Assembly (NCBI GenBank): GCA_044236265.1
Contig: JBIIGV010000064.1
Coordinates: 1 to 16,575, forward strand
Reading direction: 5' to 3'
DNA: 16,575 bases
From: Oligoflexales bacterium
GTDB lineage: Bacteria > Bdellovibrionota_B > Oligoflexia > Oligoflexales > RGVZ01
Made by a program: the position numbers and the translations under genes. The notes under the pieces are model-generated. The model was given only the letters and a program-made list of their open reading frames with translations. It made no database searches and had not been told where the DNA came from. Shown in pieces: positions 1,457 to 12,993 of this stretch (its first letter is position 1; every line of letters begins with the position of its first letter).

Positions 1457-1476
1457 TGCCATACTTTTATATGGTA
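1457..1476. promoter_or_regulatory. Putative LexA operator (SOS box) upstream of lexA: TGCCATAC-TTTT-ATATGGTA
   Basis: Imperfect palindrome (extends to 1455-1478) ending 32 nt before the lexA ATG. It is 17/20 identical to the palindrome upstream of imuA. A -10-like TATAGT (1483-1488) and RBS GGGAGA (1495-1500) lie just downstream. Confidence 0.8.
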
Positions 1477-1508
1477 TGCCGTTATAGTCCATTTGGGAGA
1501 CCGATCAC

Positions 1509-2168
1509 ATGGATAAGCTAACACCAACCCAGATGAAAGCCCTGACATTCATACGTTCTGCGATGGAGTCAACGGGCAGCGCCCCAACACTGCGTGAAAT
1601 CTGTCAGTTCATGGGATACTCCGCAGTAGGTAGTGCGCAGGACCTGATCTCAGCACTGCGACGGAAGGGCTTTTTGGAGGAACCCTCCAAACAGGCTGCC
1701 CGCGCCATTGTCCCAACTGTTGCGGGCCGGGACATCACTCCAGCGCAAGACAGCGAAGACGATGATCCGTTTACCCTCATACTTCCATGCCTTGGCGCCG
1801 TTCCAGCCGGTAACCCCATCGAAGCCATTGAAGACCGTATTGGAACGCTTCGCATGTCAACTAGCATGCTACCCAAACCCACACCCCCGCGTGCGGCTTT
1901 ATTTGCGCTTCGCGCAAAGGGTGAAAGCATGATCGGAGCCGGAATTATGGATGGAGACTGGCTTGTTGTCGCCAGTCAGCAGACCGCACCAACTAACTCA
2001 ATTGTCGTGGCTCGCCTGGAAGGCGAAGCGACCGTCAAGCGCCTTATGAAAGATCGCCAACGTGGCTGGTTTTTAAAACCAGAAAACCCAGAATTCAAAC
2101 CTGTTTTTGCTGAAGATCGCTCATTTGAAGTTATTGGACGAGTTGTAGCACTGCAAAGAAGCTTTTGA
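1509..2168 (+). CDS. lexA: SOS transcriptional repressor LexA (winged HTH plus S24 autopeptidase)
   Basis: N-terminal LTPTQ...PTLREI...LRRKG wHTH, Ala-Gly cleavage site in VPAGNP, catalytic Ser in GESM-IGAGIMDGD, catalytic Lys in EATVKR, C-terminal PENPEF...IGRVV. Confidence 0.96.
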   Translation: MDKLTPTQMKALTFIRSAMESTGSAPTLREICQFMGYSAVGSAQDLISALRRKGFLEEPSKQAARAIVPTVAGRDITPAQDSEDDDPFTLILPCLGAVPAGNPIEAIEDRIGTLRMSTSMLPKPTPPRAALFALRAKGESMIGAGIMDGDWLVVASQQTAPTNSIVVARLEGEATVKRLMKDRQRGWFLKPENPEFKPVFAEDRSFEVIGRVVALQRSF

Positions 2169-2189
2169 TTTTTTATCTTTGGTGAAAAT

Positions 2190-3524
2190 CTACACTGCTA
2201 CTTTGAGTGCAACTTTTGGATGATAAAGACCCGACTGTTGACTCAATGATTTGAGCGAGTGTTTGGGACTGCGGACTTCGCAAACAAGTTGCCTGACCTT
2301 TGTAAGCCCTAGGCCCTTCAACTCAGCAAATCTTAAATCGGACAGTGAAAACTCGCGCTGAAGAAGTTCTGCCGTTTTTTCGCTAACCAGTATCTCACCA
2401 GGATCAGCATTTGTCTGAACTCGACTGGCAACGTTGACAGCATCGCCCCACATATCAAAGCTAATCCGCTTTCCGGTTATAACACCAGCAATAACTGGCC
2501 CAGAGTGAATACCGATCCTGATATTCAAGTCTGTTCCGAATTTTTGATTAAATTTCGCAACCTGTTTGATCAAAGCTAAAGAGAATCTCGCAATTCTCTG
2601 CGCGTGATCTGGCGCACTCTGTGGGCATCCGCTGGCAGCCATATACGCATCACCAATAGTCTTTATTTTTTCAACACCGTAGTGATCAGCAAGTCGATCA
2701 AACTGGTTGAACAACTCGTGTAGCATAGCCACCAGCTGCTTGGGCGGCAGGCCTGATGAGATCTTGGTGTAGTTAACAATATCAGCAAACATAATTGTCA
2801 CGTTTTTGTAATCACGTGCCATGTTGGACCCGGTAGCCTTCAATTCACGGGCAACTTGAGCTGGGAAAACGCGAGCAATCAGTTTGTCTGCGACTCTCTT
2901 TTTTCTCTCGATGTCCTTCTCAAGCTTAAACTGTGTCCGGGCAATCATGCCTTGATCAAGAGAAATAAAAACACCTAGACCATTTGCCAAGCTTAATTGG
3001 GTTATGATCTGCCAATTTGGTAACTCCGCAAATGCCGGTATTTTTGCGCGCAAGTAGAGAAAAAACAAAGACGAAACAAGACCCGTCAATATCGCGTAGA
3101 CCGGACTTAGTTTTTCCAAAGCATAACTGGCAATGATCACCAAAACGGGAACGACTTGCGTCTGCAGAATCATACCTTTGTTAGGAAGGTAAGGTGCGTA
3201 GAGCGCCATGAATATATATAGAATAAAGACCGGGAAAACCGGAGTCATGTAGTTCGCGAACAGACGCCAACGGTTTCGCGCATCCAACAATATATAATTA
3301 AAAACAATCCAGCCCTGAAACAAACCAAAATAAAGCCCCACGTTGGGCGACTGGATGGTTTTGTAGCGAGTGATAAGGTAGAACATCCAAGTGCAAAGGG
3401 AGACGAGGATCAATGCCAGTTTAAATCGAGGACTATATAAATCCATTTGGCGATACTGGAATTCCATTTCCTGATTTGATTTGAGTACACCCAAACCAGT
3501 GGAGAAATATGGTAGTCCAGCCAT
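2190..3524 (-). CDS. Membrane-bound class III adenylate/guanylate cyclase (adenylate-type signature)
   Basis: Several hydrophobic TM segments in the N-terminal half. Catalytic motifs MFADIVNYT, EKIKTIGDAYMA (Lys, ATP-selective), RIGIHSGPV, FDMWGDAVNVASR. RBS GAGGAG 7 nt upstream of the ATG. Confidence 0.93.
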   Translation of the reverse strand: MAGLPYFSTGLGVLKSNQEMEFQYRQMDLYSPRFKLALILVSLCTWMFYLITRYKTIQSPNVGLYFGLFQGWIVFNYILLDARNRWRLFANYMTPVFPVFILYIFMALYAPYLPNKGMILQTQVVPVLVIIASYALEKLSPVYAILTGLVSSLFFLYLRAKIPAFAELPNWQIITQLSLANGLGVFISLDQGMIARTQFKLEKDIERKKRVADKLIARVFPAQVARELKATGSNMARDYKNVTIMFADIVNYTKISSGLPPKQLVAMLHELFNQFDRLADHYGVEKIKTIGDAYMAASGCPQSAPDHAQRIARFSLALIKQVAKFNQKFGTDLNIRIGIHSGPVIAGVITGKRISFDMWGDAVNVASRVQTNADPGEILVSEKTAELLQREFSLSDLRFAELKGLGLTKVRQLVCEVRSPKHSLKSLSQQSGLYHPKVALKVAV

Positions 3525-3775
3525 GAAGAAGCTCCTCGATGATAAATAACCACATGAAAATCATTCAAAGCTTGTGTCCGGTGCAAGAAGGATCGGCAGC
3601 TCACTCAGCGCAATCAAGAAATGCTAAATTTATCAATGGGATCAGATGTTTGCCGAAGTAATTACCCAGGATGCTTTGGACTCAAGACTCTCATAATCTC
3701 AAGTTGATGCCCTAAGTTGCCCCGTGAATGCGCCGGCATGACTCGGAGGCACGCTCAAAACGCCATTAAACCACT

Positions 3776-3796
3776 GAAAATAATGCTGTTATTTTC
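3776..3796. promoter_or_regulatory. Inverted repeat GAAAATAA-N5-TTATTTTC in a divergent intergenic region, possible transcription-factor site
   Basis: Perfect 8-bp arms with a 5-nt spacer, ending 64 nt upstream of the 3861 ATG. AT-rich, so chance is possible. Confidence 0.35.
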
Positions 3797-3860
3797 TCTT
3801 TACAGGCCCCCTTGGCTTGAGTAGGTTGCGCCCAGCATCACCGCCATAAAGGACCAACTT

Positions 3861-5012
3861 ATGATTAAGAGCCTCAAATCACTTGCTTTGCTTGCAATGA
3901 TCGTTTCCCTCGCAGCTTGCAGCCGAGGCGAGATTGCACGCACGTCGACAAAAACCGTCGACATTCCGCAAACGCCAGTAAAGAGTCAGGGACATGTTGG
4001 TTTTTGTTGGTCTTACGCAACAATCGGACTGATTGAAAGCATCATACTTCGCAAAACAGGAATCCAGATGGACTTAAGCGAAGAGAGCTTGGGATTTTAC
4101 CGCATGGCTGAAGAGCTACATGCATTATCTCAGAAGGTTGAGGCCGCAGAGGTTGCTGATGCTGACCTCGTCAAGAAAAAGGTTTTTGAAGATCTCGAAG
4201 GTTGGGATGTAACTTTCAATCCACTATACAATCCTGGTCTTTCAGTAAGAAATGCACTTCAGCTTGTGCGAGACTTCGGAGTTGTGCCCGAAAGTTCGTG
4301 GTCCTACAAGTTTAGGGACGGCGATCAGGAAACTGCCTTGCTACAACATATCTATGCTGGCTTTGCAAAGCTCATGAACACACATGGCCGCTCAAAAGTA
4401 ACTTGGGAGATGATCGTGGATCTTCTCGCGGAAAAAGAGGCTTTTGGCAGCAAACCACCTTCAACGTTCGACTATCTGACGCCAAGCGGTGAGAAAAAAA
4501 CATACGACGCCAAAGAATTCATCGCAGATGTCGCCGGATTTACAGTTGACGATTACACCTACATGATTCCGGATGCCACCATAGGCTACGATCAGATTGT
4601 GAAAGCTATCAAACTGACGCTCGAACGTGGCCTAGCAATTCCATTGAGCTACATGATTTATGAAGAAACCTTTAATGAATGGGACGCGTCCTATTCAGTG
4701 CAAGATCCAAATCGAGAGTTTAAACAAGACGGTGGGCACGTTGTGTTAGTAACCGACTTCGTGAATGTAGGCGGTCGTCCTGGAAGTGTGCCTCGCGATG
4801 AAATGCTGGCTGAAATGGCCAAGCCATCCTCGGCTTTGGATTATCTCATCGTAAAAAATTCGTGGGACTCACACCTTGCAAGTCCACTCCTTAGACAGCC
4901 TGGATATCACACGATGTATCAGAGCTACTTGCAACTTTTGGTAAAAAAGCCCGTTGATATAACCATTGTTGTCCCAAGAGACATCGCGTTTCAGGTGAGA
5001 TACGGCCGCTAA
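3861..5012 (+). CDS. Papain-like (peptidase C1) cysteine protease, predicted lipoprotein
   Basis: Signal peptide with lipobox LAAC. QGHVGFCWSY (oxyanion Gln and catalytic Cys), GGHVVLV (His), KNSW (Asn). Confidence 0.88.
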   Translation: MIKSLKSLALLAMIVSLAACSRGEIARTSTKTVDIPQTPVKSQGHVGFCWSYATIGLIESIILRKTGIQMDLSEESLGFYRMAEELHALSQKVEAAEVADADLVKKKVFEDLEGWDVTFNPLYNPGLSVRNALQLVRDFGVVPESSWSYKFRDGDQETALLQHIYAGFAKLMNTHGRSKVTWEMIVDLLAEKEAFGSKPPSTFDYLTPSGEKKTYDAKEFIADVAGFTVDDYTYMIPDATIGYDQIVKAIKLTLERGLAIPLSYMIYEETFNEWDASYSVQDPNREFKQDGGHVVLVTDFVNVGGRPGSVPRDEMLAEMAKPSSALDYLIVKNSWDSHLASPLLRQPGYHTMYQSYLQLLVKKPVDITIVVPRDIAFQVRYGR

Positions 5013-5084
5013 GGGTTCCAGTCGCCTCGGTAATGATGTAAAATTAATCAATACGATAGATTAACCCTAGACGATGGACGTCCG

Positions 5085-6134
5085 ATGGCACGACCTCCTT
5101 TGCGAGTTCTGGTCATATACGACTTGCCCGAACCTGTTTCGGAGCATGATGATCCTCGCTACCTGATTGATCATGACGATCGTCCAACAGAACGCGACGT
5201 CGTTCGCGCCATCAAGCGACTCGGGTTTGAACTGCACATCCACGGCGTGTTTAATGACATGCCAGGCCTTATCAGCAAGATCCTGTCTCTAAAGCCTGAT
5301 GTTATTTTTAATCTCTGCGAAACCTACCGCGGAAGCAGGTCTTACGAAGGCGATATTGCATCTCTGCTTGAGCTTTCCGGAGTTCCCTACACCGGATCAC
5401 GTCCCGCAGCGCTTCATCTTTGCAAAGACAAAGGAACGACCAAAAAAATTGCCGGCTGGGATAATATTCGAGTCCCGGCATTTAAGATGTTTTCGCGAGA
5501 CGACTTCAAATTCGAACCGTTCGTTGCGAACTTCCCTTTAATCGTAAAACCTCTGGACCGAGAAGCCAGCGAAGGCATTTCCAAGGCCAGCATCGTACAT
5601 GATTGGACGGACTGTGAAGATCGAGCCGCTTGGGTCGCCCACAAACTAAAGTCAGACGTGATCGTTGAGGAATTTATTCACGGCAGAGAAGTATATATTG
5701 GCGTGATTAATCGCAACGGCATCGTTGAAACTCTTCCGCCGCGCGAGCTTTTCTTTGATAACCTCGAAAAAGATGAGCCGATGATCGCGACCTACAAAGC
5801 AAAATGGGACGACAATTACCGGGCGCGCTGGGGAATTTCGACAAGTCGTGCAGCCAGTCTCTCCAAAACCCAACTTGAGATGCTATCGTCCCAAAGCCTT
5901 AAAATTTTCAAAAGTCTTGGTCTGCGCGGCTATGCTCGCATTGATTGGCGACTGACAACAGAAGGACTTCCAGTATTTCTTGAAGCTAATCCCAACCCTG
6001 CATTGTCCCATGACGATGACTTTGCAAAAGCGGCAAAATCAAGCGGCATACAGTATCAAGAGCTCATCTCTGACATCATCGCCGCATCTCTTGCTGAACA
6101 GCAATTAACGAGTAGCTCAAAACAGGCTGGTTAG
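5085..6134 (+). CDS. D-alanine--D-alanine ligase-like ATP-grasp protein (non-canonical Ddl paralogue)
   Basis: DVIFNLCE, LLELSGVPYTGS, CKDK, FPLIVKP..EASEGI, VEEFIHGRE, TYKAKW, RGYARIDWR, FLEANPNP. Lacks the N-terminal GGxSxE motif of housekeeping Ddl. Confidence 0.88.
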   Translation: MARPPLRVLVIYDLPEPVSEHDDPRYLIDHDDRPTERDVVRAIKRLGFELHIHGVFNDMPGLISKILSLKPDVIFNLCETYRGSRSYEGDIASLLELSGVPYTGSRPAALHLCKDKGTTKKIAGWDNIRVPAFKMFSRDDFKFEPFVANFPLIVKPLDREASEGISKASIVHDWTDCEDRAAWVAHKLKSDVIVEEFIHGREVYIGVINRNGIVETLPPRELFFDNLEKDEPMIATYKAKWDDNYRARWGISTSRAASLSKTQLEMLSSQSLKIFKSLGLRGYARIDWRLTTEGLPVFLEANPNPALSHDDDFAKAAKSSGIQYQELISDIIAASLAEQQLTSSSKQAG

Positions 6135-6141
6135 ATCTCTC

Positions 6142-6909
6142 TCAATGAACGTTGAGACTCTTCAAACGTCCAACATAGTATGAGGCGAGTGTTCGTCGCA
6201 TGCGTCGTGCATCAAAAATTCTTTGCTTTGATACACGCTTTGGGGTTTCCAGGCCGACGTCACGCATAAGCCTGTCGACAAATTCTAATTTTTTAAGTGC
6301 CACTGGAAATTTACTGTAGGTTTTTTTCCAGTGCGAATGTGGGTCAAGCCAGACGGCAAACGTTTCAGCAAAATCTTCGTCGGGATGAGTCTGAGCGTAT
6401 CCCCCGGGAAGATTTGTGACGTAATCTGGGTGCGACGAAAGTGTCGGAACAGAGTCGGGATCATATTTCCGCTTCGGATTTCCAAAAACTGCGCGCCAGT
6501 CGTCTCGCTTTGAAAGTCGGTAAGCGTGATCAACACAGTGTCCTGCTTCATGACGCATGAGACGCATAAACTCCGCGCGACTGCTACCTTCGACAAAACC
6601 AATGAGCTTTTGTTCAATCTGTTTTAAGCGCGAATCAGCAAGCCAAAAGGGGATCGCGATTGCAGTTGTACCACTCGGGCAAAACCATTCATCGCCCAAG
6701 TATGTATCAATTTTCAAATGAACGAGATGCTTGCGACGAAGTTCTGCGTGAAGTTGTGTGATCAAGTGATCAAATTTCGCAGCACTCATCTGAGGAGTAA
6801 GCTCTGAAACCGATCGCGACAAAAGAGAACGCGCTCCTTTGGGAACACGTTTATAAATATTTGCGACTACTGCTTTTTTTTTAACCATATCAAGTGCCAT
6901 ACAAGTCAT
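6142..6909 (-). CDS. Putative zinc-binding metallopeptidase (zincin, HEXXH)
   Basis: RHEAGH zinc motif and a downstream YAQTHPDEDFAETFAVWL motif. Start re-assigned from 7026 to the ATG at 6909 because GAGGTG lies 6 nt upstream and the longer start would run across the imuA promoter/operator. Confidence 0.82.
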   Translation of the reverse strand: MTCMALDMVKKKAVVANIYKRVPKGARSLLSRSVSELTPQMSAAKFDHLITQLHAELRRKHLVHLKIDTYLGDEWFCPSGTTAIAIPFWLADSRLKQIEQKLIGFVEGSSRAEFMRLMRHEAGHCVDHAYRLSKRDDWRAVFGNPKRKYDPDSVPTLSSHPDYVTNLPGGYAQTHPDEDFAETFAVWLDPHSHWKKTYSKFPVALKKLEFVDRLMRDVGLETPKRVSKQRIFDARRMRRTLASYYVGRLKSLNVH

Positions 6910-6992
6910 CGCTATCACCTCAAATGGGGCGATGCAACAATCGATGTAACACTTGCAGAGTGGGGGTTTTAAAGAATTGTGTGGCGTGAGGC

Positions 6993-7022
6993 TTGACAGA
7001 GATCGCCGAAACGTAATACCAT
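6993..7022 (+). promoter_or_regulatory. Putative sigma70 promoter of the imuA-imuB-dnaE2-smr operon
   Basis: Perfect -35 TTGACA (6993-6998), 18-nt spacer, -10-like TACCAT (7017-7022) coinciding with the left arm of the palindrome. Confidence 0.6.
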
Positions 7023-7036
7023 ACATTTGTATGGTA
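7017..7036. promoter_or_regulatory. Putative LexA operator upstream of imuA: TACCATAC-ATTT-GTATGGTA
   Basis: Perfect 8-bp inverted arms with a 4-nt spacer, overlapping the predicted -10 and abutting RBS GGAG (7038-7041). A second copy lies upstream of lexA. Confidence 0.85.
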
Positions 7037-7047
7037 CGGAGTCTTTT

Positions 7048-7746
7048 ATGGTAGCTGCTGAAGTCTTAGAAATATTGTCTGATAACCGCATCCGAACTGC
7101 AAGTAGCAACCACCCAAAGTCCTTGCCCGTAACCTCAGCCACAACCGCAAACAACCCTCAGGAGGTGAAATTATGCTTTGGAATCAGCGCTTTGGACGAG
7201 CTCTTCAGTGGTGGATTGGCATTTGGAACCCTCTTGGAAATGGGTATACCCTTCGGCAACGGAGGCCGCAGACTCTTGGTCCAATTTATAGCGGCCGCCA
7301 GCTCCGGAGCCTCCGACGGACAGAGGCACTGGTGTTTGTGGATCTCTGCAAGGCAGCAGCCCGCAGCGTACCCACCAGCCTGGCAGGCCCTGGGCGTCGA
7401 CCTGCAGCGCCTGCGCTTTGCCTGGTCCGCGTCACCAGTCGGCGATCTTAAGTTTGCTCTGTTAAACGATCTCTTTCGGGTCATTGTCATCGATCACCCA
7501 GCTCCTCTGAAACCGGACGATCATGTCTTTTTGGCGCAATGTGCGCGCCAGCATCGCAAGATCATTGTTGTCGCTCGTGATGGCTTTTTGGACCCAAGAG
7601 ACTCAAACACAGCAGCTAAGTATCGCTTAAATATATGGAGGCCGGCGCACCAAAACATTTTGGAGATTACACCGGTGCGCGGCCTCCATCGATCCACGAA
7701 GGTCTCATCATTTTTTCAGCATCCTAATTTCAAAATAGATCCATGA
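7048..7746 (+). CDS. imuA: ImuA-like RecA-fold mutasome accessory protein
   Basis: FGISALDELFSGGLAFGTLLE RecA-like start with degenerate Walker A (no GKT), YPPAWQALGVDLQRL typical of ImuA/SulA-like proteins, first gene before imuB-dnaE2. Start set to the ATG at 7048 (GGAG 6 nt upstream) rather than the TTG at 7027, which lies inside the operator. Confidence 0.82.
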   Translation: MVAAEVLEILSDNRIRTASSNHPKSLPVTSATTANNPQEVKLCFGISALDELFSGGLAFGTLLEMGIPFGNGGRRLLVQFIAAASSGASDGQRHWCLWISARQQPAAYPPAWQALGVDLQRLRFAWSASPVGDLKFALLNDLFRVIVIDHPAPLKPDDHVFLAQCARQHRKIIVVARDGFLDPRDSNTAAKYRLNIWRPAHQNILEITPVRGLHRSTKVSSFFQHPNFKIDP

Positions 7747-7791
7747 AGCATCTATTTAACAGTCGCTTCCCATTTAAAAACGAGTTTGATC

Positions 7792-9264
7792 ATGACGTAT
7801 CCCGTCCTCCCCTTTTCGTCCGCATTGTCTGGCGCATCCCGCCTAAGCAGCTTTGTAGCTGTTTATACGGATGCGCCAGATGGCGGAGATTTCCTGAGCA
7901 TCACACCACGGGTGATGCAGTGGAATCGTCATACGTATATTCTTGATCTGAGTCACGTGACTCAGTACTGGACACAAATCGCTGCCGAGCAAGACCTCTC
8001 GTTTATCGAGTTTTTACCGAAGCTATTTGAGAGTTTGTCTCATCGACCTTCATGCGTCACCATAGCTGATCATCCATGGCGGGCTCTAGTCGCTTTGTCG
8101 GTTGCATTAGAACGACCGACACTAAGCTTTCTTGATGTTCAAAGCCACCTTGGACGGAAAATTCTTCATGACGTTAGCTGGACAAACTGGCTAGCACTTT
8201 GTCGAGAGCTTCGTGATCACTTACTTGCAACTGGCAGCAAGAATATCCAAGCATCGTTTTCTGCAATGACTAAAACGATTGAGCGTATGCGCCTTTCTAA
8301 CATCTCCCAAATGGCTGATGTAGAAGCCACAGGCATGCAGCGCCGGTTTGGCAAGCTGATTGCCACCGCCTGGGATTGGACGTGGGGCAAACAAAAATCT
8401 CTCTTTGATGAAAGCTTTATCGATGGATTTCCATGGCAAGGAGTCACTTACAAAGAATCACCAAAGATCAGTCGCTACCTTGAGTCATCTCTACGAGAGT
8501 GGGACCACATCGCTCCACTCCTGTGTGAAGACCTTAATAAAATCTGCAATCTCAATTGCTGGACGTCCAGCGAACGAGTTGTAAGCCTGGAGTGGGTGCT
8601 GTCCTTTTCCTGCAGCCCATCCCTCCGCATCCCCGTCTTGTTCCGCCATCCGCATGCCCTCCACCGCGAATCCGGCCACCACAAGACAGCACTGCTCCAG
8701 GCCTTCTATTCTTGGCAAAACGCCATGCGCTCACGGAAAAAACCGGAGGCTGATGGCGAGACATATTTGAGTGATGATGCGGTGACAGAATGGAGTGTAA
8801 GTGTCGCTGAGCGACTGATCATGCCTTCCAGTGTTCAAAGCCTATTTAAAGACGACTTATCCACAGAGTCTGCACAGCTCAGAGATCTTGAAAATTCTCT
8901 TCCGGTTCCTCTAGTTAGCTACACCACAACCGATCACTGGTCTCCGGAAAGATCGTTTACACCAACACACTCACAAAACATAAAAGACCTACAAAACATA
9001 CCTTTTGGACATATTGCGAGGCTTGCCATGAACCAACGACGCCCTTTGTTTATGTATGACAACCCAGAGCCACTGGCCGAAAAGCATCAATCATCAGCCA
9101 TGGTATTTTGCGAGCGTCTGGCCACATCCTGGTGGACGGATACGGCACCCTCACCGCGCGGGACATGTCGCAATTACTATGTGCGCATGACCGACGACGG
9201 ACTATTACAATGGGTTTTTCAAAATGACGACGGGAGTTTATGTCTCCATGGACTCTACGGTTAA
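7792..9264 (+). CDS. imuB: ImuB-like inactive Y-family polymerase homologue
   Basis: Degenerate palm segment ITPRV...YILDLS, thumb-like MQRRFG, and a typical ImuB C-terminal domain (RRPLFMY..PEPL, ERLATSWW, RNYY, WVF...LHGLYG). Lies between imuA and dnaE2. Start uncertain (TTG 7786 or ATG 7792). Confidence 0.82.
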   Translation: MTYPVLPFSSALSGASRLSSFVAVYTDAPDGGDFLSITPRVMQWNRHTYILDLSHVTQYWTQIAAEQDLSFIEFLPKLFESLSHRPSCVTIADHPWRALVALSVALERPTLSFLDVQSHLGRKILHDVSWTNWLALCRELRDHLLATGSKNIQASFSAMTKTIERMRLSNISQMADVEATGMQRRFGKLIATAWDWTWGKQKSLFDESFIDGFPWQGVTYKESPKISRYLESSLREWDHIAPLLCEDLNKICNLNCWTSSERVVSLEWVLSFSCSPSLRIPVLFRHPHALHRESGHHKTALLQAFYSWQNAMRSRKKPEADGETYLSDDAVTEWSVSVAERLIMPSSVQSLFKDDLSTESAQLRDLENSLPVPLVSYTTTDHWSPERSFTPTHSQNIKDLQNIPFGHIARLAMNQRRPLFMYDNPEPLAEKHQSSAMVFCERLATSWWTDTAPSPRGTCRNYYVRMTDDGLLQWVFQNDDGSLCLHGLYG

Positions 9265-12200
9265 ACAAGAAGCATCCCATTGGATTGAGTGGCTCACGCA
9301 CACCAATTTTAGCTTTCTGCATGGAGCATCGCACCCTCACGAGATGCTTGAGACTGCTAAAGATTACGCTTATGCAGGCTTAGCTATCTGCGACTTTGAT
9401 GGCGCTTACGGACTTGCTCGCACGTACCGCCATTGGAAATCGATGGATGAAAACACGAGGCCCGCACTGTTTTACGGAGCCGAACTTCATCTGACCCAAG
9501 ATCATCATGAGCCGGTGATCCAGCAAAACACAATCGCCTTGATTGCACGCTCAGCCAGTGGCTACGGACACCTTTGCCAAATACTTACGCGTGCGCATCG
9601 TGGTGGGAAGCATAACGCCTATCTATCTTTAGAGGACCTATCATCCATGGTCCTAACAGATCTCAGCGTCATTATTCCTATGCGCGGCTTGCTGCGTAAA
9701 GACCCTGCAGCGTGGGAATCACAATGTCAGACACTTAAAAGCCTATTTAGTGCAGATGATACGTTTATGGCGTTTAGCTGCCATCTTTCAGCCTCAGAAG
9801 ATATCTGGAGTAAACGCGCTCTCCGTGTACAGAAAAATCTTGAGATCAAGCCTTTAGTCTCACTTGATCCTTTTATGCATGATCGCTCACGGAAAAAGCT
9901 ATGCGATATTCTGGCGGCTATTCGCACCAATCTTCGTCTCGATGAGGCCGTCGCCCATACATTTGTTAATGATGAGCGCACACTACTCACTGTAAATGAT
10001 ATTTATAAGCGCTTTCAAAAGTTTCCCTTATTCGATCAAGCGATACAAAACTCAAAAGAGCTTGCGGCTCGGTGTCACTTTTCTTTTGCTGAGCTTCGTT
10101 ACCGCTATCCGAAAGAGATGATTCCTCCTGGACATACGGCGCAGTCATATCTGACTGCACTCACTTGGGCCGGTGCCCAGGAAACATACGATCAGCCACT
10201 ACCACCAAAAGTACGTTCTCTGATTGAGCATGAGCTGCAGCTGATCGAAACCCTTGGTTTTGCCGATTACTTTCTAACCGTCTGGGACATCGTAGCCTGG
10301 GCAAGAAAGCAGAGCATTTTGTGCCAGGGGAGGGGATCGGCGGCTAACTCTGCTGTTTGTTTTGTGTTGGGAGTTACCGCTGTTGATCCGATGAAGTTTG
10401 ATCTCTTATTTGAGCGTTTTATCAGCGTCGAACGCGGAGACCCACCCGATATTGACGTGGATTTTGAGCATGAGCGCCGGGAAGAGGTGATTCAATACAT
10501 CTACAAGCGCTACGGCCGAGAAAAATCCGCCATGGTCGCTAACGTCATAACATTCCGGAAAAAAGGGGCTCTTCGTGCCTGTGGAAAAGCTTTGGGTATC
10601 CCTGATGAACTCCTGGGACAGGCCAGTGATTTTATGGCTTCAAGGGTGAACGCAGGAAAAACCATAAAAGACGTGGTCGAACAGCTAAAAGAAGACTCTC
10701 CCCTCAAAGACATACCCTGGGAGCTGTGGCTTGAGCTCACCAGCGAGCTAAAGGGTTTTCCCCGTCATCTTGGTATTCATTCAGGTGGCTTCATGATCGC
10801 TGACCGTCCCCTATGTCAACTGGTCCCCCAGGAACCTGCGACGATGGAAGGACGAACGGTCATTCAGTGGTGCAAAGACGACATCGAAGATCTTGGTTTT
10901 TTTAAAATTGATATCTTGGCTCTCGGCATGCTGTCAGCAATCCGCAAGGCTCTTAGTCTTGTATCTCATCAGTATCAGCAGCCACTCACACTGGCCACCA
11001 TACCCCAGGAGGACCCTGCCACCTATAAAATGATCCAACGGGCAGACACGGTCGGTACCTTTCAAATTGAATCACGGGCTCAGATGTCAATGCTGCCAAA
11101 ACTTAGGCCAAAGACGTTTTATGATCTTGTGATTGAGGTGGCCATCATTCGTCCAGGACCAATTCAAGGCGGCATGGTGCATCCGTTTTTGCGTCGACGC
11201 CATGGTCTTGAGCCTGTCACTTATCCAGATGAAAGACTAAGGCCCATCCTTCACCGCACCTTAGGGATTCCCATCTTCCAGGAACAAGTCATGCGCATTG
11301 CCATGGCGATTGGAGATTTCTCTCCGGGAGAAGCCAACGAGCTGCGTAAAAACATGGGTGCATGGTCCATGCGTGGAGATATCAACCCACGGCTCAATAA
11401 ACTGGCTATCGGTATGCAAAAAAATGGCATTGCCCCTGACTTTGCAGAGGCCATCTTGGCACAGATGAAAGGCTTCGCCGAATATGGATTTCCAGAATCG
11501 CACTCGGTATCGTTTGCGCTACTTGCGTATGCATCGTCTTATCTTAAGTGTCATTATCCAGCGGCCTTTTTTGCAGCATTGTTAAACTCACAACCCATGG
11601 GATTTTATTCGCCTCATGCACTCGTACAAGCCGCTAGAAGACAAGGGATAGCTGTGCTTCCGGTATGCGTCAATCAGTCCAGCTGGGCGTCAACATTAGA
11701 GCCCCTGTCACCAGGAAGCACGAGAGACTTTGCCATTCGTCTAGGCTTTGGACTGATCACAGGTCTTTCTAAAAAATCTGGAGAGCAAATTGAACGCACC
11801 AGAAAACGCCTCGGACCGTGGACCTCTTGGGAGCACTTTCTCCAGCACACTAAAATTCCTCGCCACGATCTTACGGCACTGGCCGCAGCCAATAGCTTTG
11901 CGGTCTTTGGACTATCGCGGCGATCGGCTGTATGGATTGCTGCCGCTGCACCACACGCTCAGTGGCTCGAAGATATAGACCTTTCTTCACGGCTACCCGA
12001 GGAGACACGGGAAGAATCCATTCAGCAAGATTTTGCCAGCTTTCAGACCTGTCTATATGCACATCCGGCTCAGTTTATTCGTGATGAAGCTTGGTGCTAT
12101 GAGGTGCCAACATCAAAGCTTAAACTCGCTAAAACTATCGAAGACATGATCCCTAATCAGGTCATCACCGTCTTTGGGATGATCTTGATTCAGCAAAGAC

Positions 12201-12481
12201 CACCAAGTGCCAACGGCATGATGTTTATTACCCTGGAGGACGAAACAGGATTTTTCAATCTTGCCATCACACCTGAAGTATTACAGCGCATTGGTCACAA
12301 AATATCAGGACAATCATTTTTATGTGTATCAGGAAAGCTACAAAGCAGCAGCGGAGCTCACTCCATCCTGGTCAAAGATGCCTTTGTGCCAAAAATTTCA
12401 AAGGCTGACGTCATCCCAATTCCTCCTCAACAAAATACTGGATACCCATCACCAGCTAAAGCAGCTATGATGAATTCATGA
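9248..12481 (+). CDS. dnaE2: Error-prone DNA polymerase DnaE2 (ImuC), C-family
   Basis: PHP start HTNFSFLHGASHP, GRGSAANSAVC, catalytic PPDIDVDFE and KIDIL, FQIESRAQM, YGFPESH, LLNSQPMGFY, OB-fold QRPPSANG..FITLEDETG. Start probably the ATG at 9248 (GGGAG at 9232-9236), alternative 9224. Overlaps the imuB 3' end. Confidence 0.96.
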   Translation: MDSTVKQEASHWIEWLTHTNFSFLHGASHPHEMLETAKDYAYAGLAICDFDGAYGLARTYRHWKSMDENTRPALFYGAELHLTQDHHEPVIQQNTIALIARSASGYGHLCQILTRAHRGGKHNAYLSLEDLSSMVLTDLSVIIPMRGLLRKDPAAWESQCQTLKSLFSADDTFMAFSCHLSASEDIWSKRALRVQKNLEIKPLVSLDPFMHDRSRKKLCDILAAIRTNLRLDEAVAHTFVNDERTLLTVNDIYKRFQKFPLFDQAIQNSKELAARCHFSFAELRYRYPKEMIPPGHTAQSYLTALTWAGAQETYDQPLPPKVRSLIEHELQLIETLGFADYFLTVWDIVAWARKQSILCQGRGSAANSAVCFVLGVTAVDPMKFDLLFERFISVERGDPPDIDVDFEHERREEVIQYIYKRYGREKSAMVANVITFRKKGALRACGKALGIPDELLGQASDFMASRVNAGKTIKDVVEQLKEDSPLKDIPWELWLELTSELKGFPRHLGIHSGGFMIADRPLCQLVPQEPATMEGRTVIQWCKDDIEDLGFFKIDILALGMLSAIRKALSLVSHQYQQPLTLATIPQEDPATYKMIQRADTVGTFQIESRAQMSMLPKLRPKTFYDLVIEVAIIRPGPIQGGMVHPFLRRRHGLEPVTYPDERLRPILHRTLGIPIFQEQVMRIAMAIGDFSPGEANELRKNMGAWSMRGDINPRLNKLAIGMQKNGIAPDFAEAILAQMKGFAEYGFPESHSVSFALLAYASSYLKCHYPAAFFAALLNSQPMGFYSPHALVQAARRQGIAVLPVCVNQSSWASTLEPLSPGSTRDFAIRLGFGLITGLSKKSGEQIERTRKRLGPWTSWEHFLQHTKIPRHDLTALAAANSFAVFGLSRRSAVWIAAAAPHAQWLEDIDLSSRLPEETREESIQQDFASFQTCLYAHPAQFIRDEAWCYEVPTSKLKLAKTIEDMIPNQVITVFGMILIQQRPPSANGMMFITLEDETGFFNLAITPEVLQRIGHKISGQSFLCVSGKLQSSSGAHSILVKDAFVPKISKADVIPIPPQQNTGYPSPAKAAMMNS

Positions 12482-12993
12482 GTCAGCCACCCAAAAAACC
12501 CTCAAAGCCAAAGAAAACCTTCACTCCCGAGTGGGAGGAGGAAGAGGAGATTCAGGATCAAAGCGAGCAGAACGCCCGCCTTCGCGAGGAGCAAGAGGCC
12601 CACCTCTTCCTGGAAGCTGTTCAAAAGCAGAAGTTCCAGCCCAAAGACTCTGAACAAGAACTCGAAAAAATTAAAAACGCCCAACGCACACAAAAATCAG
12701 CCAGCCGGCATACGATTGATCTTCACGGCATGACTGTAGCGGATGCTCAAGCTTATGTTGTTAGAACAATCCACGACATCCTAAGCCAAGCCAAGGGACA
12801 ATCTGTAGACATCAGAATTATCACCGGCAAAGGCCATCACTCCAAGGGACGCGGGCCCCAGCTTATTTCTGAAATTCATCATGTTGTAGAGTCCACATTC
12901 CGTCAGCGGATTGTCAGCATAGAAGTAAGCCCCCACGAACTGAATCTTGGGGGCGTCTATCTTAAGGGTCACTTTGACGTAAAAATGCGATGA
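12478..12993 (+). CDS. Stand-alone Smr (small MutS-related) domain endonuclease, SmrA/SmrB-like
   Basis: IDLHGMTVADA and RIITGKGHHS Smr motifs, N-terminal EAHLFLEAV helix. ATGA overlap with the dnaE2 stop (12478-12481). Confidence 0.9.
   Translation: MSQPPKKPSKPKKTFTPEWEEEEEIQDQSEQNARLREEQEAHLFLEAVQKQKFQPKDSEQELEKIKNAQRTQKSASRHTIDLHGMTVADAQAYVVRTIHDILSQAKGQSVDIRIITGKGHHSKGRGPQLISEIHHVVESTFRQRIVSIEVSPHELNLGGVYLKGHFDVKMR

Follow-up and report, generated by a model that had tools for sequence, protein, structure and literature searches.

A palindrome upstream of lexA and imuA that is very probably the operator of one LexA lineage in the Oligoflexia and part of a sister phylum

A stretch of 16,575 nucleotides (nt) from an Oligoflexales bacterium (assembly GCA_044236265.1, contig JBIIGV010000064.1; hereafter the window) carries lexA, a probable imuA-imuB-dnaE2 cassette, and two copies of a palindrome, one upstream of lexA and one upstream of imuA. 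This palindrome is very probably the operator of a single LexA lineage, marked by a signature in helix 3, that is present in the Oligoflexia and in part of a sister phylum. We favor this reading because the palindrome is conserved at orthologous genes, marks canonical SOS genes, and follows one LexA lineage. As judged from the aligned sites, conservation centers on the 16-mer CCATAC-N4-RTATGG, hereafter the core. Labels for genomes (G), contigs (C), loci (L), genera (g), and families (f) are our own. The features at issue are:

1457-1476, no strand: putative operator copy 1; core at 1459-1474, with 1 mismatch to CCATAC-N4-GTATGG
1509-2168, + strand: lexA; 219 amino acids, winged helix-turn-helix plus S24 peptidase; passes TIGR00498, with PF01726 and PF00717
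6993-6998, + strand: TTGACA, predicted as the -35 hexamer for imuA
7017-7036, no strand: putative operator copy 2; both arms perfect, with the predicted -10 hexamer TACCAT (7017-7022) as left arm

The window contained two closely similar palindromes. Both were located exactly where an earlier note on this DNA had placed them: TGCCATAC-TTTT-ATATGGTA at 1457-1476, with the lexA ATG (1509) 32 nt further on, and TACCATAC-ATTT-GTATGGTA at 7017-7036, upstream of imuA. They were identical at 17 of 20 bases, with spacers of the same length (4 nt) and different sequence. Arm complementarity was 8 of 8 in the imuA site, which the note had described as perfectly palindromic, and 6 of 8 in the lexA site. 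The extended form of the palindrome is TACCATAC-N4-GTATGGTW. The note had seen no other full copy by eye, and our search of the window returned exactly two matches at up to 3 mismatches; in 200 shuffles the mean was 0.02 matches and a single shuffle reached 2, in a test that is post hoc since the pattern was taken from the two sites themselves. The 3.25-Mb genome had 3 sites within 2 mismatches of the 20-mer, and five shuffles of it had 0, 0, 1, 0, and 0.

The imuA copy lies on the -10 element of a predicted promoter, as had been proposed. TTGACA (6993), an 18-nt spacer, and TACCAT (7017-7022) formed the top sigma-70-type match between positions 1200 and 7800 (10 of 12 positions), although that scan by itself proves nothing (7 such sites found, 8.1 expected). 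Among 52 imuA promoters, 34 had TTGAC 17-19 nt before the box, so that the left arm was the -10 hexamer. The outer TA of the imuA site is probably retained because TACCAT doubles as that hexamer. One could then suppose that conservation reflects merely a -10 hexamer (TACCAT) and the ATG of GTATGG as a start codon, with no operator. The 34 promoters fit this idea, several loci had no in-frame start ahead of the right-arm ATG, and at 12 of 30 lexA loci from other Oligoflexia only the right arm, with the start codon, was well kept. However, at imuA in the window the right-arm ATG opens only an out-of-frame open reading frame (ORF) of 7 codons, and the arms are still perfect. Both arms were also retained where no -35 hexamer was found, and the sites concentrated at SOS genes and were absent from the loci of other LexA types. 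We consider an explanation without an operator extremely improbable.

The palindrome was conserved upstream of imuA orthologues, as the reading in the earlier note requires. A search of 130 genomes with an ImuA profile gave 65 with a match, and 64 of these were examined; G027, with a contig that ends 102 nt upstream, was excluded. We kept apart 11 imuA loci that had originally been fetched through a motif hit (the box was present in all 11). All 41 imuA genes that had their own promoter and were not motif-selected, the window included, had the core with at most 2 mismatches within 350 nt (9 exact, 24 with one mismatch, 8 with two), compared to a background of 32 of 3000 random windows. In three cases imuA was downstream of the main lexA in an operon, with best matches of 1, 1, and 3 mismatches and a further box before imuB. 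Across 51 aligned imuA sites, the left-arm C-C-A-T was 100% invariant and column 5 was A in 100%. In genus g3 (L093-L099), a box before imuA was followed about 700 nt later by a second one, which lies where imuA ends and sits on a TTGACA promoter for imuB. In another order, that of family f19 (L184, L187, L188, L190, L191), the ImuA profile had 0 matches in 33, and the box sits before umuD.

The box also marked other SOS genes. We examined 1.8 kb upstream of recA at 60 of 118 loci, picked to spread over families, and found a site with at most 2 mismatches at 28 of them (background, 22 of 600). The site was generally about 900-1050 nt before the recA match, and about 160 nt before it in G004 and G005. 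The box was found at dinB in 4 of 10 loci of other genomes, in addition to this genome, and at uvrA in 3 sampled sites from other genomes. All 12 genomes of genus g1, to which this genome belongs, that have a lexA locus carried the core upstream of lexA with at most 2 mismatches. The frequency of a box at lexA itself was 18 of 50 loci in the Oligoflexales (within 700 nt), 21 of 29 in other orders of the Oligoflexia, and 24 of 24 at the signature loci of the sister phylum described below. Taken over the Oligoflexia, genes adjacent to a box were imuA, imuB, dnaE2, dinB, uvrA, umuD, an EI24-recA operon, and genes for a TIGR03916 radical SAM protein, HNH proteins, TnpB, and unknown ORFs. Some exact hits were intragenic and are probably due to chance.

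Within this genome, the best sites were at imuA, lexA, the recA operon, and dinB. We scored the genome with a weight matrix built from 47 distinct sites, all from other genomes. The top five hits were imuA (30.9 bits), lexA (27.6), C209:4683 (18.4), C102:3971 (18.1), and C218:6291 (16.6). The site at C209:4683 precedes a gene for an EI24/CysZ-family membrane protein that is followed by recA (C209:4683-6423, L349), and that at C218:6291 precedes dinB (C218:5649-7373, L348). Mismatches to the core were 0 at imuA, 1 at lexA, 1 at dinB, and 2 at EI24/CysZ-recA. The intragenic site C102:3971 was treated as chance. The earlier note had suggested such a scan to define the regulon; it added the recA operon and dinB, and uvrA was ruled out as a target in this genome, the best match upstream of it having 5 mismatches. 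The EI24/CysZ-recA layout with a leading box recurs in several families and would place a CysZ-like gene under SOS control. The dinB gene is divergent from an ORF for a methylpurine-DNA glycosylase (mpg), and the box is inside the longest mpg frame, near its 5' end.

The presence of the box went with the type of LexA that a genome encodes. At the level of the phylum, 80 of 130 genomes had the exact core, and these 80 belonged to a single class. At the level of the order, it occurred in 65 of 94 genomes with 211 strand hits, compared to 22 of 94 genomes and 38 hits for the reversed control. Within the order it was present in 59 of 71 genomes with this LexA and in 6 of 23 without (reversed control, 7 of 23), or 59 of 63 versus 6 of 23 when family f12, discussed below, was excluded. 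Eight genomes of the order have imuA behind a second type of lexA, whose product is 27-33% identical to the LexA of the window; none of these 8 imuA genes had a box with at most 2 mismatches when up to 1150 nt were searched, and G034 likewise had none. The second-type lexA genes (L311-L319: G070, G050, G049, G073, G042, G026, G013, G041, G034) are mostly directly before imuA, and several have TGTAC/GTACA-type repeats upstream. These lexA-imuA units are probably mobile, self-regulated cassettes. One exception to the pairing of helix and box was G066 (L149, G066:C94), in which a second-type lexA has a box of the main clade right at its start, possibly a case of one LexA being cross-controlled by another.

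A similar association was observed in a sister Bdellovibrionota phylum, which we reached through a record labelled Bdellovibrionales (L073, which is G130). The exact core was present in 76 of 201 sampled genomes. We searched 81 genomes for LexA and 60 matched; the following counts rest on the best 50 of the 60 loci. All 24 loci with the helix-3 signature x-A-[VI]-G-[ST]-[AVI]-Q-D had a box no more than 700 nt from lexA, 19 of them within 300 nt and at no more than 1 mismatch. None of the 26 non-signature loci had a box. In a tree built by a quick method from 130 LexA proteins (the last 20 loci absent; midpoint root), the signature group had an SH-aLRT value of 93. Based on these comparisons, the motif is one that reaches the class Oligoflexia and part of the sister phylum. 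The proposal that it is the LexA operator of its lineage agrees with the conservation, the set of SOS genes, and the co-variation with LexA; the lineage had been drawn too narrowly, as it spans two phyla.

Other LexA types in these groups were accompanied by other repeats. Two non-signature loci (G202, G194) carried the published TTAC-N3-GTAA, and others had TTACGC- or TACGG-type direct repeats. The direct repeat TTACGCA-N4-(T)TACGC was upstream of lexA genes encoding an FKSFGSVQRY- or FQSLGTVQNY-type helix (L503, L506, L508, L511, L512, L514, L554, L561, L562, and L564 in the sister phylum, and L329 in G094), and a related TACGGA repeat was at L502, L507, L510, and L567. Both are candidates for further LexA boxes, and neither was found as a LexA box in the literature examined.

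Several observations weigh against assigning the palindrome to LexA. The helix signature was selected after the data had been seen, and kin are not independent, so the counts are not probabilities. No box was found within 700 nt of 32 of the 50 Oligoflexales lexA genes, and autoregulation through a lexA box, as the earlier note had assumed, would extend to the genus and to a minority of the order. In family f12 the LexA keeps the same helix, yet the exact core was in 0 of 8 genomes and a box was in 0 of 11 recA regions, with looser patterns at or below control. The f12 box was not found at lexA, recA, or dinB or by looser patterns (a de novo motif search was not run), leaving what appears to be an orphan repressor in these genomes (G044-G047, G049-G051, G053; L195-L202). 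It is plausible that f12 lost the box through loss of its targets because 6 of the 8 genomes had no ImuA match and 2 had only the second-type cassette. Conversely, G005 and G027 had 2-mismatch sites at recA (G005 also at dinB) and no LexA match; both assemblies are fragmented and 90-91% complete. Lastly, the sites at recA and dinB in this genome are not significant on their own because shuffled sequences yielded 1-4 hits of at least 16 bits, compared to 5 real hits. Support for these weaker sites came from the genus, in which the recA box (at most 2 mismatches) was present in 6 of 8 members tested and the dinB box in 3 of 3.

These exceptions could be explained if the box were bound by some other regulator of the damage response, such as a TetR/XRE repressor or a WYL/PafBC-like activator, that traveled with the LexA lineage while LexA did something else. 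Such a protein would account for LexA without a box in f12, for the many Oligoflexales lexA genes that lack one, and for the sites in G005 and G027, and regulators of this kind are known in other lineages, such as EppR (PMC12242105) and a WYL activator. However, the site covers the -10 element, which is the position of a repressor; the box tracks the LexA helix (24 of 24 versus 0 of 26); in many genomes from both phyla it is found right at lexA; and its span and spacer are like those of LexA boxes. We therefore think it very unlikely that another regulator is responsible, and return to LexA as the protein that very probably binds the box.

The sequence of the palindrome differed from those of known LexA boxes and shared parts of their architecture. 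Statements on published work here and below refer to the retrieved parts of the papers cited. The box of Bdellovibrio bacteriovorus, the closest relative whose LexA has been validated, is TTAC-N3-GTAA (cited in PMC8565304 and PMC3323433). The inner TAC..GTA dyad is common to both, whereas the motif described here has ATAC/RTAT arms, a spacer of 4 rather than 3 nt, and CC/GG ends, and TTAC-N3-GTAA was found in our genomes only alongside a LexA with a different type of helix (G202, G194). In addition, recA of B. bacteriovorus is reported in the title of a cited paper not to be repressed by LexA, in contrast to the box in 28 of 60 recA regions of Oligoflexia. The E. coli box CTGT-N8-ACAG and the Myxococcus xanthus box CTRHAMRYBYGTTCAGS (PMC8565304, PMC9705874) have the same 16-bp span, with C first and G last. 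In the E. coli notation our motif is CCAT-N8-ATGG, which matches 4 of the 8 specified positions of the E. coli box and is compatible with 8 of 12 in that of M. xanthus. The CTGT/ACAG arms were not present, and the LexA helix of the window is unlike the beta/gamma type. A center of 4 nt is shared with the Gram-positive and LexA2 boxes, and the defining letters of each fail. The view that the palindrome is unlike the known boxes is therefore right for the defining letters and too strong for the span, the 4-nt center, and the similarity to GTAC-N4-GTAC.

This similarity is the main reason to ask whether the palindrome is a LexA operator of a known specificity, either the GTAC-N4-GTRC box through which Pseudomonas LexA2 controls imuABC (PMC5544203), a cyanobacterial variant, or a motif already catalogued. 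The 4-nt spacer and the TAC-N4-GT core are shared with the LexA2 box, 6 of 8 positions match GTAC-N4-GTAC, and the compatibility with the M. xanthus consensus points the same way. A Magnetococcus motif also has CC..GG ends over the same span. In contrast to the LexA2 box, the palindrome has ATAC/GTAT for GTAC/GTRC, with A and not G at the first inner-arm position in 100% of the 51 imuA sites, and its regulon would extend over the genome and not be confined to one cassette. The left-arm CCAT is invariant in those sites, and GTAC-N4-GTRC leaves the outer CC/GG unspecified (PMC5544203). The second-type LexA cassettes of the same order use other repeats. Among the 44 validated LexA proteins in Table S2 of PMC8565304, B. 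bacteriovorus is the only representative of the group, and its TTAC-N3-GTAA accompanies a different helix. We regard a known specificity as unlikely, although less so than another regulator, and the palindrome probably represents, on the sequence evidence, a new LexA specificity within an already known system.

The motif is likely undescribed. There were 17 LexA motifs on record by 2021 (PMC8565304). Our literature search, which included full text and had CollecTF and RegPrecise outside its range, did not find the palindrome, and it is not given in the retrieved parts of PMC8565304, PMC7739468, PMC13148647, PMC3108266, PMC3901139, PMC9705874, PMC3789691, PMC3323433, PMC13416735, PMC5544203, or PMC12242105. 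For Oligoflexales and Silvanigrellales, no publication about SOS control was returned by the search. Full-text hits to the letters of the motif were primers and unrelated text; those to ATGGTA/TACCAT in PMC12242105 were cloning primers, and those in the supplement of PMC8565304 were 6 passages with scattered hexamers in Bacteroidetes promoters. Matches of viral contigs to ACCATAC-N4-GTATGGT (106 stretches) were not above chance by a rough estimate and were not used.

The LexA protein of the window has an intact cleavage site (Ala100-Gly101), Ser140, and Lys177, and the helix-3 region reads GYSAVGSAQDL. It is the sole PF00717 match in this genome, which is 88.7% complete, and its closest named relatives, 79-92% identical, are mostly in records labelled Oligoflexales or Pseudobacteriovorax, with a few others. 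The genes from imuA onward are:

7038-7041, + strand: GGAG, probably the ribosome-binding site; the ATG at 7048 follows after 6 nt
7048-7746, + strand: imuA-like gene, 232 amino acids from the ATG at 7048; the start given by the ORF finder is TTG 7027
7786-9264, + strand: imuB-like gene, start uncertain; named from its position and conserved neighbors
9224-12481, + strand: dnaE2 (imuC), error-prone polymerase; NF004225, 1181 bits versus a cutoff of 939
12478-12993, + strand: Smr-domain gene (PF01713); its ATG overlaps the dnaE2 stop codon

The order imuA-imuB-dnaE2 fits an imuABC cassette, with dnaE2 above its cutoff, imuA below it, and imuB without a family match. Translation of imuA probably starts at ATG 7048, behind the GGAG. 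Its match to NF033429 was weak and below cutoff (E 0.0011), 13 of 22 orthologues match that family, and the imuA family profile faintly resembles RecA of this genome (hhalign probability 35%, E 4e-4). Family-profile searches with the imuB-like gene gave no match; it lies between imuA and dnaE2, and 45 homologous stretches were present in the fetched loci, many directly after imuA. The Smr-domain gene possibly shares the dnaE2 transcript as an extra member of the cassette. Published imuA-imuB-dnaE2 cassettes are described as persistently regulated by LexA (PMC3901139, PMC3323433). The window has what is probably the same gene set, a palindrome on the promoter, and lexA nearby. It differs in the letters of the operator, in the 4.9 kb between lexA and imuA with one box each, and in ImuA and ImuB proteins too diverged for the standard cutoffs of hidden Markov models (HMMs). 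Between lexA and imuA are a D-Ala-D-Ala-ligase-like ATP-grasp gene (5085-6134, + strand) and, convergent with it, a putative zinc metallopeptidase gene (6142-7026, - strand; PF15887). The latter was rejected as a target of the box, as its start is probably near 6888-6918 and not at the ATG inside the box.

Based on established LexA biology, in which dimers bind DNA, block polymerase, and cleave themselves when triggered by RecA (PMC8565304), we propose the following mechanism. A LexA dimer would sit on the box with one winged helix-turn-helix per arm. At imuA it would block RNA polymerase because the left arm is the -10 element of the TTGACA promoter. After DNA damage, RecA filaments would trigger cleavage between Ala100 and Gly101 by Ser140 and Lys177. 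Cleavage would release imuA-imuB-dnaE2, lexA, dinB, and EI24/CysZ-recA in this genome, with the weaker sites presumably opening first and the perfect imuA site last.

Boxes were also found in front of genes of apparently selfish elements. We inspected 35 sites in the sister phylum, hand-picked and not a random draw. HMMs supported damage-response genes at 20 of them: 6 lexA, 4 TIGR03916, 4 dinB-type, 2 dnaE2, 1 umuD, 1 recA, 1 PA0069-family radical SAM, and 1 weak imuA. The other 15 comprised 3 HNH genes, 3 Y1 transposases, 2 relatives cut off and recognized by eye, 1 DUF4160, and 6 without a family. Perfect boxes were thus directly before HNH-nuclease genes or IS200/REP-type tyrosine transposase genes at 6 of the 35 sites by HMM and at 2 more by eye. 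These element boxes were in G199 (L539, L544, L549), G167 (L536, L541, L546), G220 (L547), and G149 (L528). Of the 19 perfect sites in G199, 5 were no more than 550 nt from the start of a contig. In the Oligoflexales, perfect boxes also preceded one TnpB gene and one HNH gene. Another box was located some 110 nt ahead of an arginase gene, and two families of small unknown ORFs, both present in G080 and G081, were led by a box. The loci of this group of TnpB, HNH, arginase, and unknown-ORF genes were L156 (G075), L127 (G065), L121/L126 (G059, G064), L169, L173, L175, L172, and L176.

These element boxes raise the possibility, which we hold only tentatively, that the 20-mer is a compact promoter-operator-start module that selfish elements carry too, and that f12 has lost the regulon and kept the repressor. 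The left arm would be the -10 element, the right-arm ATG may start a nearly leaderless gene, and LexA would cover both. If so, HNH and transposase elements would tie their activity to the SOS response of the host and would spread ready-made LexA-controlled promoters.

LexA is a textbook example of a regulator that changes its DNA target, and how it rewrites the target while keeping the regulon is an open question (PMC8565304). The motif leaves the general view of SOS control unchanged. It would supply an SOS regulon for a whole class with cultured members and for part of a sister phylum, in which the published box of B. bacteriovorus would prove to be one of several. Closely related LexA helices with differing boxes (the palindrome, TTAC-N3-GTAA, and the TTACGC- and TACGG-type repeats) would make up a panel for helix swaps that address the change in specificity.

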